DNA of 64,000 nucleotides from contig JAUQVK010000025.1 of NCBI GenBank assembly GCA_039794845.1, forward strand, positions 1 to 64,000, given 5' to 3'. The translations under genes were made by a program, and so were the position numbers. The notes beneath the pieces were generated by a model, which saw only the letters and a list, made by a program, of their open reading frames with translations, was not told where the DNA came from and searched no databases. Shown here in pieces: positions 4,715 through 20,948 of the stretch; position 1 is the first letter of the stretch, and the number at the start of each line of letters is the position of its first letter. Source of the stretch: Thermostichus sp. DRC_bins_24 (lineage in GTDB: Bacteria > Cyanobacteriota > Cyanobacteriia > Thermostichales > Thermostichaceae).

Positions 4715-4728
4715 GTATTGTTCAATAC
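4715..4728. promoter_or_regulatory. Putative NtcA box in the cphA/comEC divergent region
   Basis: GTATTGTTCAATAC = GTA-N8-TAC with a perfect 6-bp inverted repeat, about 110 bp upstream of cphA. Confidence 0.55.
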
Positions 4729-11238: not shown

Positions 11239-12480
11239 TCAACGGCCGCCAATCACACCGATGTAATTGGTCACCCACTCGTAGTAGGGCACACAGTCCA
11301 TGCGGCCATCGCCACAGTCGGCCACGGGGGTTTTCCAGAAGGAGATGCGCTCAAAATTGTCGATGCCGTTGGTCTGGCAACCCTCCGGCCCCAGGAGCTC
11401 GCTGGCCTGACAAGCGGCAGGCACCACCGGTACCGATCCAAACCAAGCCGCCAGATCCCCTTGTACCTTCGGGTTCAAGGAATGCTCCATCCACAGGTAG
11501 GCACAGTTGGGGTGCTTGGCCGTGGCACTGAGCATGGTGGTATCCGACCAGCCGGTGGCTCCTTCCTCCGGCACAACACTGGCAATGGGTTGTCCTTCCG
11601 ACTGCAACAGGTTCACCTGGAAGGGCCAGGAGCCAGAGGCCACCACCCCCTCATTGACAAAATCATCCACCTGCACCGCCGCATCGTGCCAGTAGCGCCC
11701 GATCAGCTGCCGTTGTTGCCGCAACAAATCCAAAGCCGCATCAAATTGTTCGCGGGTAAGCTCGTAGGGATCCGTAATGCCCAATTCCGGGCGGTGGGCC
11801 TTCAGGTACAGGGCGGCATCGGCAATGTAAATGGGGCCATCGTAGGCTTGGATGCGACCCTTGTTGGATTTGCCATCCGCCAGGATTTTTTCCTCAAACA
11901 CCACATCCCAGCTGGTGGGGGGCTCCCGGAAGGCCTGGGTGTTGTACATCAAGACATTGGATCCCCATTGGTAGGGCACGCCGTAGTGTTTGCCCTCCAC
12001 GGTGTGCCAGGGGGCATCCTGCAGGCGGGGGTCGATGGTGTCCCAACTGGGAATCAGACGGGGGTTGATTTGCTGTACCCGTTCCCCCTTGATCAGGCGC
12101 AGCGTGGCATCCCCAGAAGCGGTCACCAGATCGAAGCCACCTTCGTTCATCAGGGCCACCATCTCATCGGAGGTTGCCGCCACCTTGACGCTGACTTTGC
12201 AACCGGTTTCTTTCTCAAAGCCGGTGACCCAGTCGTAGGCGGGATCCGTCTCCCCCCGTTCGATATAGCCTGCCCAAGCCACGATCGAGACCGCCCCCTC
12301 CGGGCGGCCCAAGCGATACAGAGGGCCACGGGCAGCGTGAGCAGAATGAGGGGTGAGCAGCAACGTCAGCAGGGCCAAGCCCAGCGAGAGCAACAGGGTC
12401 AGCCCCAGCCGCAACCACAGGCGAGGAGGCACCGAGAAGATACTGCGTAGACGAGTGAAGGGTTTGAGGTTGGCGATCAC
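11239..12480 (-). CDS. Polyamine/spermidine-type ABC substrate-binding protein (YdcS-like)
   Basis: Signal peptide ending AHA; AWAGYIE, FEKETGCKV, YGVPYQWG, PEEGATGWSD, HPNCAY. Confidence 0.88.
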   Translation of the reverse strand: MIANLKPFTRLRSIFSVPPRLWLRLGLTLLLSLGLALLTLLLTPHSAHAARGPLYRLGRPEGAVSIVAWAGYIERGETDPAYDWVTGFEKETGCKVSVKVAATSDEMVALMNEGGFDLVTASGDATLRLIKGERVQQINPRLIPSWDTIDPRLQDAPWHTVEGKHYGVPYQWGSNVLMYNTQAFREPPTSWDVVFEEKILADGKSNKGRIQAYDGPIYIADAALYLKAHRPELGITDPYELTREQFDAALDLLRQQRQLIGRYWHDAAVQVDDFVNEGVVASGSWPFQVNLLQSEGQPIASVVPEEGATGWSDTTMLSATAKHPNCAYLWMEHSLNPKVQGDLAAWFGSVPVVPAACQASELLGPEGCQTNGIDNFERISFWKTPVADCGDGRMDCVPYYEWVTNYIGVIGGR

Positions 12481-12592: not shown

Positions 12593-14596
12593 TTAGCGCC
12601 GCTTGAGCACCAGCAGGGTGAGGTCATCGTAAAGGGTTTGGGATCCGATAAATTGCCGCACCTCTTTGATGATCGACTGGCGGATCTGGCTGGCGCTCTG
12701 GTGCCAGTGGCGGCCAATGGCTTCACAGAGCCGGTCTAGGCCAAATTGCTCTTTGGCTTCGTTTTCGGCTTCGGTAATGCCGTCGGTATAAAGCACTACC
12801 CCGTCTCCTGGCTCTAGGAAAAGTTCGTGCTGATCCACAAAGGCGCTGATGTCGGCCTCCAGCCCGATGGGAAAACCCAAGTCGATCGTATCGATCCGCT
12901 GGATCTCACCATTGGCCCGCACCAGGATCAATTCTTCGTGTTGGCCGCTTAACTTGAGCTTGCCCGAGTGGTAATCCAACAGCGATAGGCTGAGGTTCTT
13001 ATCGGTGCGCATGCGCTGCAGATTCTCGTAGATAACCTGGTTCAGGGTGGATAAAAAGCGTTTGCTGTCGGTTTCCCCATTGGCCAGTAGCGTGCGTATG
13101 GCCATCTGCACCATGATCATCAACACGCCACTTTCTAGACCATGCCCGGTGACATCGCCGATGCCAATTTTGACGTGACCATTTTGATGCAAAACATCGT
13201 AGTAATCTCCCCCCACCTCTGCTGCCGGTTCCATAAAGCCTGCTATATCCAGCCCTGGGATCCCTTGCAATTCTTCATCCTTGGGTAGGATCATCTGCTG
13301 TAGGCGACGGGTGATCTCCACTTCGGCACTGAGGCGAAAGTTCTCCACTTGCAGAGCTTGGTTCAGTTGCGAGATCTCGTGGTTGGCCTCCGCTAGGGCT
13401 TTTTGGGAGCGTTTCAACTCTTCGGTTTTTTGGTTGAGCAGCCACTGATCATGAATAGCCTGTGGCACCGCTTGGAGCAAATCCACCACCACGGCGGCGG
13501 TGGCAAAACCTGCCTGCTCCACCCCTAGCCAGGGCAAGGGATCCACCGGCCCAGGGCTGCTGGCCAGAATGTCAAATTGCAAATCTGGGCGGATTTGGCC
13601 GATGTGATAGTCGCGGCGCACATGATGGTTGGGGGCAATTTGCCAAAGGCCACCGGGCGACTCCAACGTTTGGCCGATGGCAGCCTGTCGCACCGCTTCT
13701 ACGTCTGGCGATTGGGCTGCTTGGGCGGATTGCCACCACAGATACACCTGCGCGTAGGCAGCAGCGACCGGATCGTTGATGACGCGATGACGACCATAAC
13801 GCCGCCGGAACCGGCTTAAAAAGGCTTGGTTGGCGGGGGTTTGCAGATTCTGAAAATGCCCCCAACAGGCGTAGTGTCCCACTGCTGCCGAGCCAATGTG
13901 CAACAGCTCCACCTCGGAAATGCTCACCGCCATCACCGGCATTTGGGCCGCTAAGATCCCTGCCTCCGACAAGGCGGTGTAAAAGCCGAGGTTGCTGTCG
14001 CCATTGAGGGTGCTGAAGATGGCATCCGGGGCGGTCTGACGGAGGGCTTGCAACACGCTCCCAAAGTGCCGGGATCCCAGTGGGACATAGCATTCCCCCG
14101 CCAACTGTCCGCCCCAATGGTGTAACTGCCCCTTCAGGTAGGTATGGGCCACCCGCGGAAAGACATAGTCGGATCCCACCAAAAAGATGCGGCGATGCCC
14201 CTGCTGCAACAACCAATGCAAGGCCGGCTCCACCTGCTGGTTGAGACAGGCCCCGGTGTAAAACACCTGCCGCGACTGCTCCATGCCCTCGTACTGTACC
14301 GGGTACCACAACAGGGCATCCGCTGCTTCAAAGATGGGCAACACCGCTTTGCGACTAAGTGAAGTCCAGCAGCCAAACACCGTCGCCACCTGTGGAATCA
14401 ACCACTCGGCAGCCGATAAGAATCGCTCCGGGTTGGAAGCCCCATCTTCGATGATGGGTTCGATCTCTGAGCCGAACAGGCCCCCCTGTTGGTTGATCTC
14501 ATCGATGGCCAACAGGGCTGCATCCACCAGGGGGGCTTCACTGATGGCCATGGTGCCGCTGAGGGAATGCAGGATCCCAACTTGGATGGTAGACAT
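12593..14596 (-). CDS. UrtA/AmiC-like ligand-binding domain fused to a SpoIIE/PP2C (RsbU-like) Ser phosphatase
   Basis: N-terminus VGILHSLSGTMAISE...VFGCWTS.SRKAVLP..YPVQYEG; coiled coil; C-terminus VGGDYYD, IGDVTGHG, YTDGITE, DDLT. Confidence 0.9.
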   Translation of the reverse strand: MSTIQVGILHSLSGTMAISEAPLVDAALLAIDEINQQGGLFGSEIEPIIEDGASNPERFLSAAEWLIPQVATVFGCWTSLSRKAVLPIFEAADALLWYPVQYEGMEQSRQVFYTGACLNQQVEPALHWLLQQGHRRIFLVGSDYVFPRVAHTYLKGQLHHWGGQLAGECYVPLGSRHFGSVLQALRQTAPDAIFSTLNGDSNLGFYTALSEAGILAAQMPVMAVSISEVELLHIGSAAVGHYACWGHFQNLQTPANQAFLSRFRRRYGRHRVINDPVAAAYAQVYLWWQSAQAAQSPDVEAVRQAAIGQTLESPGGLWQIAPNHHVRRDYHIGQIRPDLQFDILASSPGPVDPLPWLGVEQAGFATAAVVVDLLQAVPQAIHDQWLLNQKTEELKRSQKALAEANHEISQLNQALQVENFRLSAEVEITRRLQQMILPKDEELQGIPGLDIAGFMEPAAEVGGDYYDVLHQNGHVKIGIGDVTGHGLESGVLMIMVQMAIRTLLANGETDSKRFLSTLNQVIYENLQRMRTDKNLSLSLLDYHSGKLKLSGQHEELILVRANGEIQRIDTIDLGFPIGLEADISAFVDQHELFLEPGDGVVLYTDGITEAENEAKEQFGLDRLCEAIGRHWHQSASQIRQSIIKEVRQFIGSQTLYDDLTLLVLKRR

Positions 14597-14654
14597 ATCC
14601 CTCTCTCTATAAAGATGAGGCAAAGATGAGGCCCAAGGCTCGCACGACAGCCCT

Positions 14655-14668
14655 GTAGTCTAATGTAC
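14655..14668. promoter_or_regulatory. Putative NtcA box upstream of the UrtA-PP2C gene
   Basis: (T)GTAGTCTAATGTAC = GTA-N8-TAC, about 60 bp upstream of ATG 14596. Confidence 0.45.
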
Positions 14669-14687: not shown

Positions 14688-15290
14688 TTAGATGCCTTCT
14701 AAGTTGACATTCAGAAAGCGGGCCATCTCCGCCGCTTGATTTTCGATCTCGGCCAGAGGGGGTGGCTGCCCAACGCCCGTGAGGGGAATATCGCCACGCC
14801 CCTTCACCCGCAAATAAATGGCTCGGCGGGGGTTTAGCCCTTCTCTTAGCTCTACCCTTAGGCTTTGCACATCGGCAAAGTCATACTCGAGGCGTACTTC
14901 GCGGTTTTTGCCCGGAAAACCCTGCCGTACTAAGGTTACCTTTTGGGTTTGGCGGTCAAATTCGTTGTAGCCGCCCCCCAAGTTCCAGTACAAACTCAGC
15001 CATTGGTACAGCCCCGCCAGGGATCCGAGCACGCCGTAGAAGAGCATGGCAATGCCTTGAGGGATGAACACCAGCGCCGCTGGCTGAGAAAAGGGCAACA
15101 GATTTCGGTGGAAATAGCTCGAGAGGCCTGCCAAAGTAAAGCCCAGGCCGCCTGCCGTCAGCGCCACCGCCCAAAAGTAGACGCTGGCCCGCCGCGATCC
15201 AATCACGGTGTAGCGCAACCTATCGGCAGAGCGGATTTCTGGCACAGTTGTGGACACAAGCGGGATCCCTACAGGCTCTCCGATTTTCAT
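14688..15290 (-). CDS. ycf4: Photosystem I assembly protein Ycf4
   Basis: GSRR..YFWA, GLSSY, FIPQGIAM.FYG, GGGYNEFD, GFPGKNR, EGLNPRR, IPLT. Start is ATG 15290 or GTG 15257. Confidence 0.95.
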   Translation of the reverse strand: MKIGEPVGIPLVSTTVPEIRSADRLRYTVIGSRRASVYFWAVALTAGGLGFTLAGLSSYFHRNLLPFSQPAALVFIPQGIAMLFYGVLGSLAGLYQWLSLYWNLGGGYNEFDRQTQKVTLVRQGFPGKNREVRLEYDFADVQSLRVELREGLNPRRAIYLRVKGRGDIPLTGVGQPPPLAEIENQAAEMARFLNVNLEGI

Positions 15291-15441
15291 CTTAAGCCGC
15301 AGTGTCCCCCCCTGCAGAAATTGCGCCAAGTTGCAGCCCAACCTGCGTCAGGCCGACAGCTCAGACGGCTTCATGAGGCTCCTAAAGGGGTAATTTATTT
15401 GCCAAGCTGGAAAAAAAGTCTTTGCCCACTCTTTCATCCGT

Positions 15442-18686: not shown

Positions 18687-19268
18687 CTAGGGCACCTCAG
18701 CTCCGCCGTAGGGCGGTACCTCAAACAAAATCGAGTAGGCGTCCTGCTTTTGGACCGGCTCGAACAGGTAGCGCTGGGCAACGCGAGCAGAGGCCGGCAC
18801 GATGGCCACGCGCACCGGCGGATGATCCAGGGACACCAACGGCTGCGGGTTATACCAGTGCCAGCCCGCCCAGCCTGCTCCCGCCAAAACCACTACAGCA
18901 GCGGCCACCCGCCCCCAGGGATTGCGACTGCGCCGCCGCCGGGATCCCCAGCCCAGATCGACCACCGGTGCTTGATCCAACTCATCGAACACGCGGCTGA
19001 TCAGCAGCTCCGTCTGGGCGCCGTCCAAAGTCGGGGTCTCTAGGTTGGCCAAACCCGCCTGCAAAGCCGCCAGTCGGCTGTACAGTTGCCGCCCCTGGGC
19101 ATCGGCTGCCAGCCAGTCCTCCACTTGCCGCGCCTCTTGGGGCGATAATTCCCCATCTAGGTAGGCGCTCAACTGTTCAAAGCGCTCCTCAACCTTCGGT
19201 AACTCTTGCGGCGGGTGATTGCGGGGATCCCCGCAGTTGGGGTTAGAGTTGCCGCGAAACATGCTCAT
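18687..19268 (-). CDS. Anti-sigma factor (RseA/zf-HC2-like, one TM)
   Basis: FEQLSAYLDGELSPQEARQVEDWL, single TM; overlaps the sigma stop by 4 nt. Confidence 0.88.
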   Translation of the reverse strand: MSMFRGNSNPNCGDPRNHPPQELPKVEERFEQLSAYLDGELSPQEARQVEDWLAADAQGRQLYSRLAALQAGLANLETPTLDGAQTELLISRVFDELDQAPVVDLGWGSRRRRSRNPWGRVAAAVVVLAGAGWAGWHWYNPQPLVSLDHPPVRVAIVPASARVAQRYLFEPVQKQDAYSILFEVPPYGGAEVP

Positions 19269-19933
19269 TCACCATCGAGATAGGGTTTCAGGGTGGATTG
19301 CAACCGGGCGCGGGCCCGAGCAATACGGGATTTCACAGTGCCCAAAGACACCCCTGTAATTTCGGCAATTTCTTCATAGGCCATACCCTGAATTTCGCGC
19401 AGCAGAATGGTTTGGCGAAAGGCCGGTGGTAGATCTCGGACGGCCTGATGCAATTGCTCGTAAAACTCGCAGGTGGTGAGGTGATCGTGGGGGCTAGGGC
19501 TATCACTGGGTAGTTCCCACTCCATTTCGCTGTCGCGCATTGAAATGGGGGCATCCAGAGATAGGGGCTGCTGCTGACGCTTGCGCTTGCGCAGCTCGTC
19601 GTAAAAAAGGTTGGTGGCAATTCGACCCAACCAGCTGCGAAACTTGACCGGCTCCTGTAACCGCTTTAGGTGGCGGTAGGCACGGATCCACACTTCTTGG
19701 GCCAGATCGTGCCGGTCATGCCAGTCGGGGGCAAGGTGATAGAGTACCTTATCCACATGAGCTTGATAACGACGCATCAGCTCAGCAAAGGCTTCGCGGT
19801 GGGGCTGGGATCCCTGCTGACAGAGCAGCACCAGGTCCAGATCGGCGAGCTTTTCAGGCCGCACAGCCACACTCGTCGCCGAGATCGACCAGGGCTGACA
19901 AGGGATATCGCTGAGGGCAGCATTCATAAGCAT
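19265..19933 (-). CDS. sigG: ECF sigma factor SigG (RpoE-type)
   Basis: YHLAPDW.DR.DLAQEVWIR, FRSWLGRIATNLFYDELRKRKR, YEEIAEITGVSLGTVKSRIARAR. Start is ATG 19933 or 19927. Confidence 0.92.
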   Translation of the reverse strand: MLMNAALSDIPCQPWSISATSVAVRPEKLADLDLVLLCQQGSQPHREAFAELMRRYQAHVDKVLYHLAPDWHDRHDLAQEVWIRAYRHLKRLQEPVKFRSWLGRIATNLFYDELRKRKRQQQPLSLDAPISMRDSEMEWELPSDSPSPHDHLTTCEFYEQLHQAVRDLPPAFRQTILLREIQGMAYEEIAEITGVSLGTVKSRIARARARLQSTLKPYLDGE

Positions 19934-20207
19934 CCATGGAGTGAAAAGCAAAAATGGAGGGATCCCCTCCCGAGCAGAACCTTTATTCCTAGGACGAATT
20001 GGCAGAAGTAGGGTTCCCCTGCTCCCCCCATCCAATCGGCAGGAGGCCGGCGGACGAAGGGACAAGACCGTTCGCGCTTTCCCTGATTGTGACGCAAACT
20101 CCAGGGGACAAGTTACCCCAACCACCACACCACTTTTGCAGGATAGCCCGTGGCTCCGCCACTGGGCTACAGTGGGCTTGCCGAGTGCCCGGACAGCCTG
20201 ACAGCGC

Positions 20208-20948
20208 ATGACTTCTGATTCCCCTGCTGCCGATTCTCTATCTGCTGTTCTTGCCGAGCTCAAGGCTGTGCCGATGCTGACGGAGATCTCGGCGGCCTCT
20301 TTGCAATGGCTGGGATCCCAAGTGAAGCTGCGGGAGGTCCCGGCAGAACGGGCACTCTTCATGCAAGATGCCTGGGGCAGTGTTGTTTATTTGCTGCTCT
20401 CCGGCTGGGCCAAGGTACGGCGGGCTTTGCGGGTACCCACTGATGAGTCGGTGCAGGATAGCTCCAGAACCCTCGCAATTTTGGGGCCGGGCTCTTGGGT
20501 GGGGGAAATGGCCGTGCTGGACGAGTCCCCCCGTTCGCGGGATGTGCTGACGCTAACCCCGGTGCGGGTGGCCGGGATCCCGGCGGCAGTGTTCAGCGAA
20601 CTGATGCTACAGGAGCCACAGCTGTGTTACCAGCTGGCCTGTAGCCTTTCCCGCCGCCTGCGCCTGACCAACCTGCAAGCAGATCTCAGCCATCAAAGCC
20701 CGCCGGTACGACTGGTGCACACGCTGGTGCAGCTGGCAGAAGCCTTTGGCGAGAAAACCTCCCAAGGGGTGCGCATCTTTCACCCACCCCTGCAGGATTT
20801 GGCCGATATCAGCCAGATCAGCTTGCAGGCGGCGACGACTGTGTTGGATCGCTTTGTACAACAAGGGGTTGTGAAGTTGCTGCCGGAGCAACCATCGCTG
20901 CTGTTGGTGCAGTACGCCAAACTGGTAGAGGCCACCCGTTTGACCTAG
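20208..20948 (+). CDS. Crp/Fnr family transcriptional regulator
   Basis: cNMP-binding domain (GEMAVLDESPRS) plus C-terminal HTH (QDLADISQIS). Confidence 0.88.
   Translation: MTSDSPAADSLSAVLAELKAVPMLTEISAASLQWLGSQVKLREVPAERALFMQDAWGSVVYLLLSGWAKVRRALRVPTDESVQDSSRTLAILGPGSWVGEMAVLDESPRSRDVLTLTPVRVAGIPAAVFSELMLQEPQLCYQLACSLSRRLRLTNLQADLSHQSPPVRLVHTLVQLAEAFGEKTSQGVRIFHPPLQDLADISQISLQAATTVLDRFVQQGVVKLLPEQPSLLLVQYAKLVEATRLT

Follow-up and report, generated by a model that had tools for sequence, protein, structure and literature searches.

A UrtA-type domain fused to a SpoIIE-type phosphatase

The window analysed here, the whole 64,000-nt stretch formed by positions 1 to 64,000 of contig JAUQVK010000025.1 (GenBank assembly GCA_039794845.1) of the cyanobacterium Thermostichus sp. 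DRC_bins_24, carries on its reverse strand a gene for a fusion protein, termed P0001, in which a ligand-binding domain of the type found in the urea transport protein UrtA is joined to a SpoIIE-type PP2C phosphatase. A first-pass annotation, made from the letters of the window, had described a full UrtA-type domain starting at about residue 3 with no signal peptide or transmembrane segment, then a coiled coil and an RsbU/SpoIIE phosphatase with all its Asp motifs. The gene and its parts are as follows (aa, amino acids; AF2, AlphaFold2).

12593..14596, reverse strand: coding sequence of the UrtA-like/PP2C fusion gene, 667 aa (P0001), stop codon included (open reading frame list, translation, Pfam)
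14598..14607, reverse strand: Shine-Dalgarno-like sequence GAGAGAGGGA, 5' of the ATG (sequence; kept in orthologs)
13517..14590, reverse strand: cytoplasmic UrtA-type ligand-binding domain, aa 3-360 (Peripla_BP_5, fold matches, urea contacts)
13292..13498, reverse strand: long linker helix, aa 367-435, putative dimeric coiled coil (AF2 model)
12599..13399, reverse strand: output cassette, aa 400-666, made of the distal linker and the SpoIIE-type PP2C (identity to the Amt-PP2C paralog; SpoIIE Pfam match)

The enclosing open reading frame (ORF) extends from 12593 to 14623 on the reverse strand. The true start is most likely the ATG at 14596, because it is preceded by GAGAGAGGGA and both elements are conserved in two orthologs; a TTG start at 14623 was rejected, since the stretch bearing it is not conserved in the same two orthologs. 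From this ATG, Peripla_BP_5 spans aa 4-360 (Pfam, E 4e-130), and no 19-residue Kyte-Doolittle window of P0001 reaches 1.6 (maximum 1.5), so that neither a transmembrane segment nor a signal peptide is predicted. The transport UrtA of the same genome carries 41 residues with a Tat-like signal (NRRQLL) ahead of the shared TIRVGILHSL start, and P0001 begins at this mature-domain boundary without an export signal. In all 120 homologs among the matches listed, at most 22 residues stand ahead of the domain. At the other end of the protein, SpoIIE (PF07228) covers aa 472-666 with 136.4 bits against a gathering cut-off of 25 (E 1.5e-39), and the motifs GGDYYD (462), GDVTGHG (480), TDG (604) and DD (657) supply D464, D467, D481, D605, D657 and D658; of 81 homologs that are PP2C fusions, 78-81 retain these motifs. 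Such Asp residues bind metal in phosphatases of the PPM family. An AF2 model of P0001 built with 56 family members (predicted local distance difference test score, pLDDT, 90.6) displays the binding domain, a single continuous helix and a PP2C fold, with block pLDDT values of 75-88 for the linker helix. The analysis upheld the Peripla_BP_5 plus SpoIIE architecture that had been read from the letters, including the early start of the sensor domain, its cytoplasmic location and the complete set of phosphatase motifs. We conclude that P0001 is almost certainly a real cytoplasmic sensor phosphatase. It is predicted to be soluble and is probably dimeric, and its PP2C domain is, from its motifs, apparently active and of the Mn-dependent SpoIIE/RsbU type.

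Full-length orthologs were found in a 23-genome family sample in genomes G462 (91% identity) and G617 (88%), both of the same genus and with the gene in the same syntenic position. The architecture also recurs, with 50-93% identity, in about 80 protein clusters from cyanobacteria, filamentous ones among them. An assembly artefact, the possibility raised with the first-pass annotation, was ruled out on these grounds and the fusion is authentic. No second full-length match was found among 401 sampled genomes of the phylum, and the architecture is therefore uncommon among the sampled species. A search with patterns from the family alignment, all taken from the binding domain, recovered for the most part plain UrtA genes, with a PP2C fusion at one of 80 loci (L065); in actinobacterial loci the longer matches had the look of UrtA genes in tandem. 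The signal-less UrtA-like domain is elsewhere fused to histidine kinases, class III cyclases and GGDEF, PAS or GAF domains.

The sensor domain retains a urea-type pocket

The best solved relatives by sequence in the PDB were urea binders, at 359 and 315-320 bits, with the amide binder AmiC much weaker at 167 bits. The best fold match was the urea-binding protein of Caldicellulosiruptor (8TG1), with a template modelling (TM) score of 0.95, and three UrtA structures with urea bound (8HIC, 7S6E and 7S6F) matched with TM 0.88-0.89 and 43-44% identity. Identity of the domain to urea binders overall was 43-47%; AmiC matched in fold with TM 0.90-0.93 and had 30-31% identity. For UrtA of Prochlorococcus marinus, the structural study (PMC10392092) names nine residues near urea (W120, S122, Y141, Q144, E146, Y190, F192, N246 and S274) and reports that mutants at Ser122, Gln144, Tyr190, Asn246 or Trp120 had weakened or abolished urea binding. 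All nine contacts are identical in P0001 (W77, S79, Y98, Q101, E103, Y144, F146, N198 and S225). Judged by these residues, P0001 carries the urea form of the pocket and, with AmiC so much more distant, its sensor is of the UrtA type with a urea-type rather than an AmiC-type pocket. Sequence and model together make urea its probable ligand. The genome encodes both urea import (urtABCDE, contig C11) and urea hydrolysis (urease alpha, 969 bits).

Across the 81 PP2C fusions, seven of the nine positions are conserved in 77-80 sequences, and Gln101 and Tyr144 in 64. These last two are replaced together by His/His in 13 of the 81, and the sequences concerned are often second paralogs within a strain. 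The pocket thus varies within the fusion family, and its two types suggest a second ligand specificity. The homologs with a His/His pocket are P0016, P0037, P0038, P0042, P0046, P0052-54, P0056, P0063, P0065, P0066 and P0073, and some strains (Nodosilinea PGN35, LEGE 06152, CCP3) hold one paralog of each type.

A tree of 223 binding domains was computed with FastTree and Shimodaira-Hasegawa (SH)-like support; it is in effect unrooted, with no rooting test. All but three of the 126 fused domains (123) fell on one side of a split with 99% SH-like support and all 97 free UrtAs on the other. Because this split sets the fused domains apart from free UrtAs, the sensor domain is placed as an old separate lineage and not as a recent copy of the host UrtA.

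The output cassette is shared with an ammonium-transporter fusion and tracks slr1658/slr1659

Six SpoIIE-family loci are present in the genome: the fusion gene, GAF-PP2C, REC-PP2C, Hpt-REC-PP2C, a stand-alone PP2C and Amt-PP2C. The cassette of P0001 (aa 400-666) aligned without a gap to aa 489-755 of Amt-PP2C at 65% identity, as compared with 30% to the GAF-PP2C paralog, and homologs of this cassette stand behind many sensor types across cyanobacteria (52-66% identity). Its match to the SiaA-type model NF038263 is weak (E 7e-14, 51.3 bits against a cut-off of 700) and confined to linker and PP2C (aa 388-664); the cassette also matches PDB 6k4e. Two further loci of the genome matter here.

Contig C26, L062:5012-7282, forward strand: Amt-PP2C, an ammonium transporter (PF00909) followed by the linker/PP2C cassette, 756 aa
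Contig C101, L063:5935-6901, reverse strand: the only slr1658/slr1659 pair of the genome, side by side

The slr1658-family gene scores 245.1 bits on NF052618 (cut-off 200) with weak similarity to SiaB, and the slr1659-superfamily gene 161.8 bits on NF047705 (cut-off 100). The best fold match of the Slr1659 model (pLDDT 93) is SiaC (TM 0.70-0.73), ahead of SpoIIAA and RsbV, and its FLNSSG loop is invariant in 28 aligned Slr1659 sequences. The slr1658 family was found in 114 of the 301 genomes sampled from the class, and we surveyed its 30 best loci over 1.5 kb. At 20 of these loci a cassette homolog precedes slr1658 in the same orientation by no more than 1.2 kb, at 15 of them by no more than 270 nt, and slr1659 follows slr1658 directly at 27 of the 30. 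When the ORFs just downstream of slr1659 were scanned at 18 loci, five encoded class III cyclases, one a GGDEF and one a HAMP protein; the others were PAS proteins cut by the end of the locus (four), unrelated (six) or without a match (one). An array in genome G002 (L199, G002:C3, 145-9250) encodes in order a CHASE3-HAMP-HK-REC-PP2C protein (HK, histidine kinase), an Slr1658-like protein, a protein of 114 aa at the slr1659 position and a UrtA-like-GAF-PAS-PAS-class III cyclase of 1385 aa; as its domains read, the urea-type domain there heads the output enzyme of the same module.

In the genus, for which 12 genomes were compared, four genomes have both the cassette and slr1658, namely G000 (the genome under study), G462, G510 and G617, and the remaining eight have neither of them; slr1658 is also present in all three further genomes with fused UrtA-like sensors that were checked. 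These co-occurrence counts come from related genomes and are not independent samples. Since phosphatase and pair are unlinked in the genome under study, the connection between them rests on cassette homology and co-occurrence, and by these the Slr1658/Slr1659 pair is the likely partner of the phosphatase. On the genomic surroundings of the two loci, we note that Amt-PP2C has chlorophyllide-reductase-like genes and an aminotransferase gene on its flanks, with no switch genes, and that the genes following the C101 pair on the same strand encode a TPR protein, a 107-aa ORF and a TnpB-like protein, with no adjacent cyclase. A search of the genome with the PAS-cyclase of a relative gave mostly PAS-domain matches.

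A proposed model for urea input into a partner switch

The fusion had been taken for a one-component system converting intracellular urea or amides into protein dephosphorylation. Because the phosphatase cassette tracks the slr1658/slr1659 pair, the input arm of a multi-protein switch fits better. We regard as evenly balanced, from sequence, predicted structure and analogy, the proposal that P0001 serves a SiaABCD-like partner switch, and not a classical anti-sigma switch, as an orphan input phosphatase responding to urea. Urea would enter through the UrtABCDE importer or arise from metabolism, and would close the two lobes of the binding domain. This closure would be relayed along the paired linker helices and would switch the phosphatase dimer on or off as for RsbU-type enzymes, whose linker-driven dimer switch is proposed in PMC12143880 to be general. 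The target of the phosphatase would be the phospho-form of the single Slr1659-like protein of the genome, and the product of the neighbouring gene, an Slr1658-like kinase of the SiaB type, would re-phosphorylate it. Unphosphorylated Slr1659 might in turn control a cyclic AMP (cAMP) or cyclic di-GMP (c-di-GMP) cyclase, by analogy both with the partner-switch logic of SiaABCD, in which SiaC controls SiaD (PMC7278518), and with the cyclase genes found after the pair elsewhere. Amt-PP2C would feed ammonium information into the same Slr1659 node and, as it bears a closely similar output cassette, the urea and ammonium inputs would converge on one switch. As a more tentative and wider proposal, cyanobacteria might own a family of cytoplasmic receptors dedicated to urea, which would form an old clade apart from transport UrtA and would be coupled to phosphatases, histidine kinases and nucleotide cyclases; in the present genome urea and ammonium-transporter receptors would share a cassette that sets the phosphorylation of one SiaC-like protein, giving a route from nitrogen source to second messengers beside 2-oxoglutarate, PII and NtcA.

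Alternative ligands, targets and modes of control

Several findings weigh against the partner-switch model, with regard to both its ligand and its target. P0001 scores 433.5 bits on TIGR03407, the UrtA equivalog of NCBIfam, under the cut-off of 492.75 (the transport UrtA of the genome reaches 602 bits), and the separate clade of the fused domains means that the ligand could differ despite the kept contacts. The heptad signal of the linker is weak as well, 116 of 2000 shuffles equalling or exceeding it; the coiled coil of the first-pass annotation is in the AF2 model a single long helix. The equivalog shortfall and the clade, together with the covarying His/His pair and the fold shared with AmiC, would suit a protein of the same architecture that binds another small amide or urea-like ligand (formamide, acetamide, hydroxyurea or a guanidine-type compound) or that serves as a ligand-free dimerising scaffold. 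We hold this to be unlikely for P0001 given its full set of urea contacts, including those whose mutation impaired UrtA, its greater identity to urea binders than to AmiC, and the 493.8 bits by which L065, a close relative within the UrtA-like-PP2C family, passes the TIGR03407 cut-off. On the side of the target, the fusion gene (C25), the Amt paralog (C26) and the slr1658/slr1659 pair (C101) lie on three contigs, neither of the two class III cyclases of the genome is linked to the C101 pair, and no partner-switch genes were found in the window or near L065, the only other UrtA-like-PP2C locus examined. Furthermore, 10 of the 30 best slr1658 loci have no cassette within 1.5 kb, G536 (family sample; 95% complete) has cassette matches and no slr1658 match, and the four positive genomes of the genus may be one sub-lineage and their co-occurrence possibly a single event. 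The phosphatase could instead act on a classical STAS antagonist and through it on an RsbW-like kinase and a sigma factor, the wiring first suggested for it. RsbU/SpoIIE-family phosphatases classically act on STAS anti-sigma-factor antagonists, the genome has three classical STAS genes and two RsbW-like genes, and one RsbW-like HATPase_c_2 gene (contig C11, L061:7788-8267, forward strand) lies 1.6 kb upstream of urtABCDE with a divergent FAD oxidoreductase in between. The presence of classical STAS genes does not, however, follow the phosphatase type across the genus: each of the 12 genomes has 3-4 classical STAS genes with or without a cassette phosphatase, the eight that lack one included. 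As cassette homologs are encoded beside slr1658/slr1659 at two thirds of the best loci (20/30), and the STAS proteins could be served by four other PP2C paralogs (GAF-, REC-, Hpt-REC- and stand-alone), we consider the classical wiring improbable and retain the SiaABCD-like switch.

The control of the fusion gene was considered from one further feature.

14655..14668, no strand assigned: palindromic GTA-N8-TAC (NtcA-type) box GTACATTAGACTAC, with two TAN3T hexamers inside (TACATT and TAGACT)

This box, noted at first pass as lying about 60 bp upstream and overlapping -10-like hexamers, is confirmed as GTACATTAGACTAC, separated from the downstream ATG by 58 nt and from the preceding ycf4 stop codon by 20 nt. 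For activation by NtcA the box has its centre near -41.5 and a -10 element follows it by about 22 nt, while for repression it overlaps the promoter. NtcA control of the fusion gene, raised at first pass as possible repression, is, on the sequence, rather doubtful, and the box can be read just as well as a plain -10 element because its invariant positions also form the two TAN3T hexamers. That the box is no NtcA site but a conserved -10 region or a relic, with the fusion gene read through from ycf4, falls in our view just short of an even chance. It would agree with the lack of any conserved TAN3T (-10) element at activator (class II) distance downstream of the box in the fusion gene and its orthologs, with the promoter scan, which found no sigma-70 consensus promoter, with the absence of a terminator-like site between ycf4 and the fusion gene, and with the persistence of the box in G510, which lacks the fusion gene. 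It accounts less well for the palindromic G1 and C14, which a -10 element does not need and which are kept in four of four genomes while N8 and flanks vary: the orthologous boxes are GTATATTAGCTTAC in G462 and GTATAGTAGTTTAC in G617, with GTA and TAC kept and the N8 positions and flanks diverging with indels, in a comparison of closely related genomes only. GTA-N8-TAC is also overrepresented in the window, with 6 matches where 1.85 are expected, a count attained by 3 of 100 shuffles. Another of these boxes, GTATTGTTCAATAC at window positions 4715-4728, lies 46-59 nt upstream of the start of a cyanophycin synthetase ORF (4669, reverse strand) and overlaps the start of a divergent ComEC-like ORF.

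Relation to known systems

P0001 resembles UrtA in fold (TM 0.88-0.95), identity and the nine urea contacts, but differs from it in lacking an export signal and adjacent urtBCDE genes, in its fused linker and phosphatase, in its score below the TIGR03407 cut-off and in its separate clade; the genome moreover holds a separate true UrtA within urtABCDE. AmiC of Pseudomonas aeruginosa (PDB 1PEA, 1QO0) is a cytoplasmic amide sensor that sequesters the antiterminator AmiR, and in both systems a type I binding-protein fold would serve in the cytoplasm as a sensor, here a candidate one, of small amide-type molecules. AmiC is however a separate protein, whereas the more distantly related sensor of P0001 (30-31% identity) is covalently fused to an enzyme. 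What the genome has in common with SiaABCD of P. aeruginosa is a PP2C preceded by a helical linker, a kinase resembling SiaB and a switch protein with the fold of SiaC, and cassette homologs occur elsewhere in operons of PP2C, kinase, switch protein and cyclase. SiaA itself is a membrane HAMP protein, whereas P0001 is predicted to be soluble with a defined ligand-type domain and reaches 51 bits against the 700 of the SiaA-type cut-off; P0001 is also encoded away from the pair, and cyanobacterial outputs are mostly class III cyclases, not GGDEF proteins. RsbU and RsbP of Bacillus subtilis offer the same succession of N-terminal regulatory module, helical linker and SpoIIE-family PPM phosphatase. 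The input of P0001 is instead a fused small-molecule domain and not RsbT or PAS, and its probable substrate is SiaC-like and not RsbV.

The equivalog pair of this genome is the counterpart of the slr1658/slr1659 cluster of Synechocystis sp. PCC 6803, for which neither a biochemical mechanism nor an input signal nor a urea-type input was found in the literature searched. Slr1657, a neighbour of the cluster, is identified as a GGDEF protein in a table of PMC10124867, an slr1658 mutant is cited in PMC7555055 as having an iron-starvation-recovery phenotype (Zer et al. 2018), and a predicted interaction sub-network joins Slr1657-1660 with Sll0537 and Sll0536 in PMC4614683.

Urea is a major nitrogen source for cyanobacteria, and the nitrogen sensing known in these organisms works indirectly through 2-oxoglutarate, PII and NtcA. 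The literature searched, from which subscription journals were excluded, gave no account of the Peripla_BP_5 plus SpoIIE architecture, of a bacterial urea-sensing phosphatase or of a dedicated urea sensor in cyanobacteria, and bears out the earlier remark that no characterised cyanobacterial example was known. A review of substrate-binding proteins (SBPs) in signalling mentions neither Peripla_BP_5 nor SpoIIE nor urea, and the Amt plus SpoIIE combination came up once, in Pelagibacter. What appears to be new is a chemically defined cytoplasmic urea-type input domain on a putative SiaABCD-like partner switch, encoded as an orphan. A soluble receptor with a complete urea pocket wired to an enzyme makes a directly testable urea-sensor candidate, with the Amt version of the same output cassette as a built-in comparison. 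If correct, the model would give a defined chemical input to the widespread and mechanistically unstudied slr1658/slr1659 switch and would tie nitrogen source to cAMP or c-di-GMP signalling. Public names of the family, 'urea ABC transporter substrate-binding protein' or 'transporter substrate-binding protein', attach a transporter label that does not fit a signalling enzyme and makes urea transporters seem more numerous than they are. On its own, the domain could in addition become a scaffold for a cytoplasm-compatible urea biosensor.

Genomic surroundings of the fusion gene

The gene order at the site is htrA-like, ycf4, fusion gene and YdcS-like SBP gene, the immediate neighbours serving as context only.

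14688..15293, reverse strand: ycf4, upstream neighbour (Pfam Ycf4, E 3.4e-76; syntenic in 5/5 genus genomes checked)
11239..12480, reverse strand: YdcS-like ABC substrate-binding protein, downstream neighbour (NF041888, 635 bits, below the cut-off of 725)

The neighbourhood survey that had been proposed recovered synteny with ycf4 and the SBP gene in relatives and no functionally linked partner genes at the site: no conserved neighbourhood of the fusion gene was found in the window or at L065, and its neighbours are ycf4 and the YdcS-like SBP gene, not urtBCDE. The fusion gene is absent from G510 and G272, where ycf4 is directly followed by the SBP gene. At this position in G510 (L201, G510:C79, 2095-2340) the 5' region of the fusion gene with its GTA-N8-TAC box is joined to the 3' intergenic sequence, a junction that looks like a clean deletion scar. 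Some 1.5 kb upstream of a UrtA-like-PAS-HK-REC protein in L200 (G631:C171), positions 906-1352 encode a 148-aa ORF with a Pfam match to the Tse2 ADP-ribosyltransferase toxin, which is probably unrelated. About 4 kb from the fusion gene, the window region 18687-20948 carries an extracytoplasmic function (ECF)-type sigma factor gene (19265-20362, reverse strand) with an anti-sigma-like gene downstream (18687-19268, reverse strand) and a divergent gene for a CRP-family cyclic nucleotide-binding regulator (20208-20948, forward strand).

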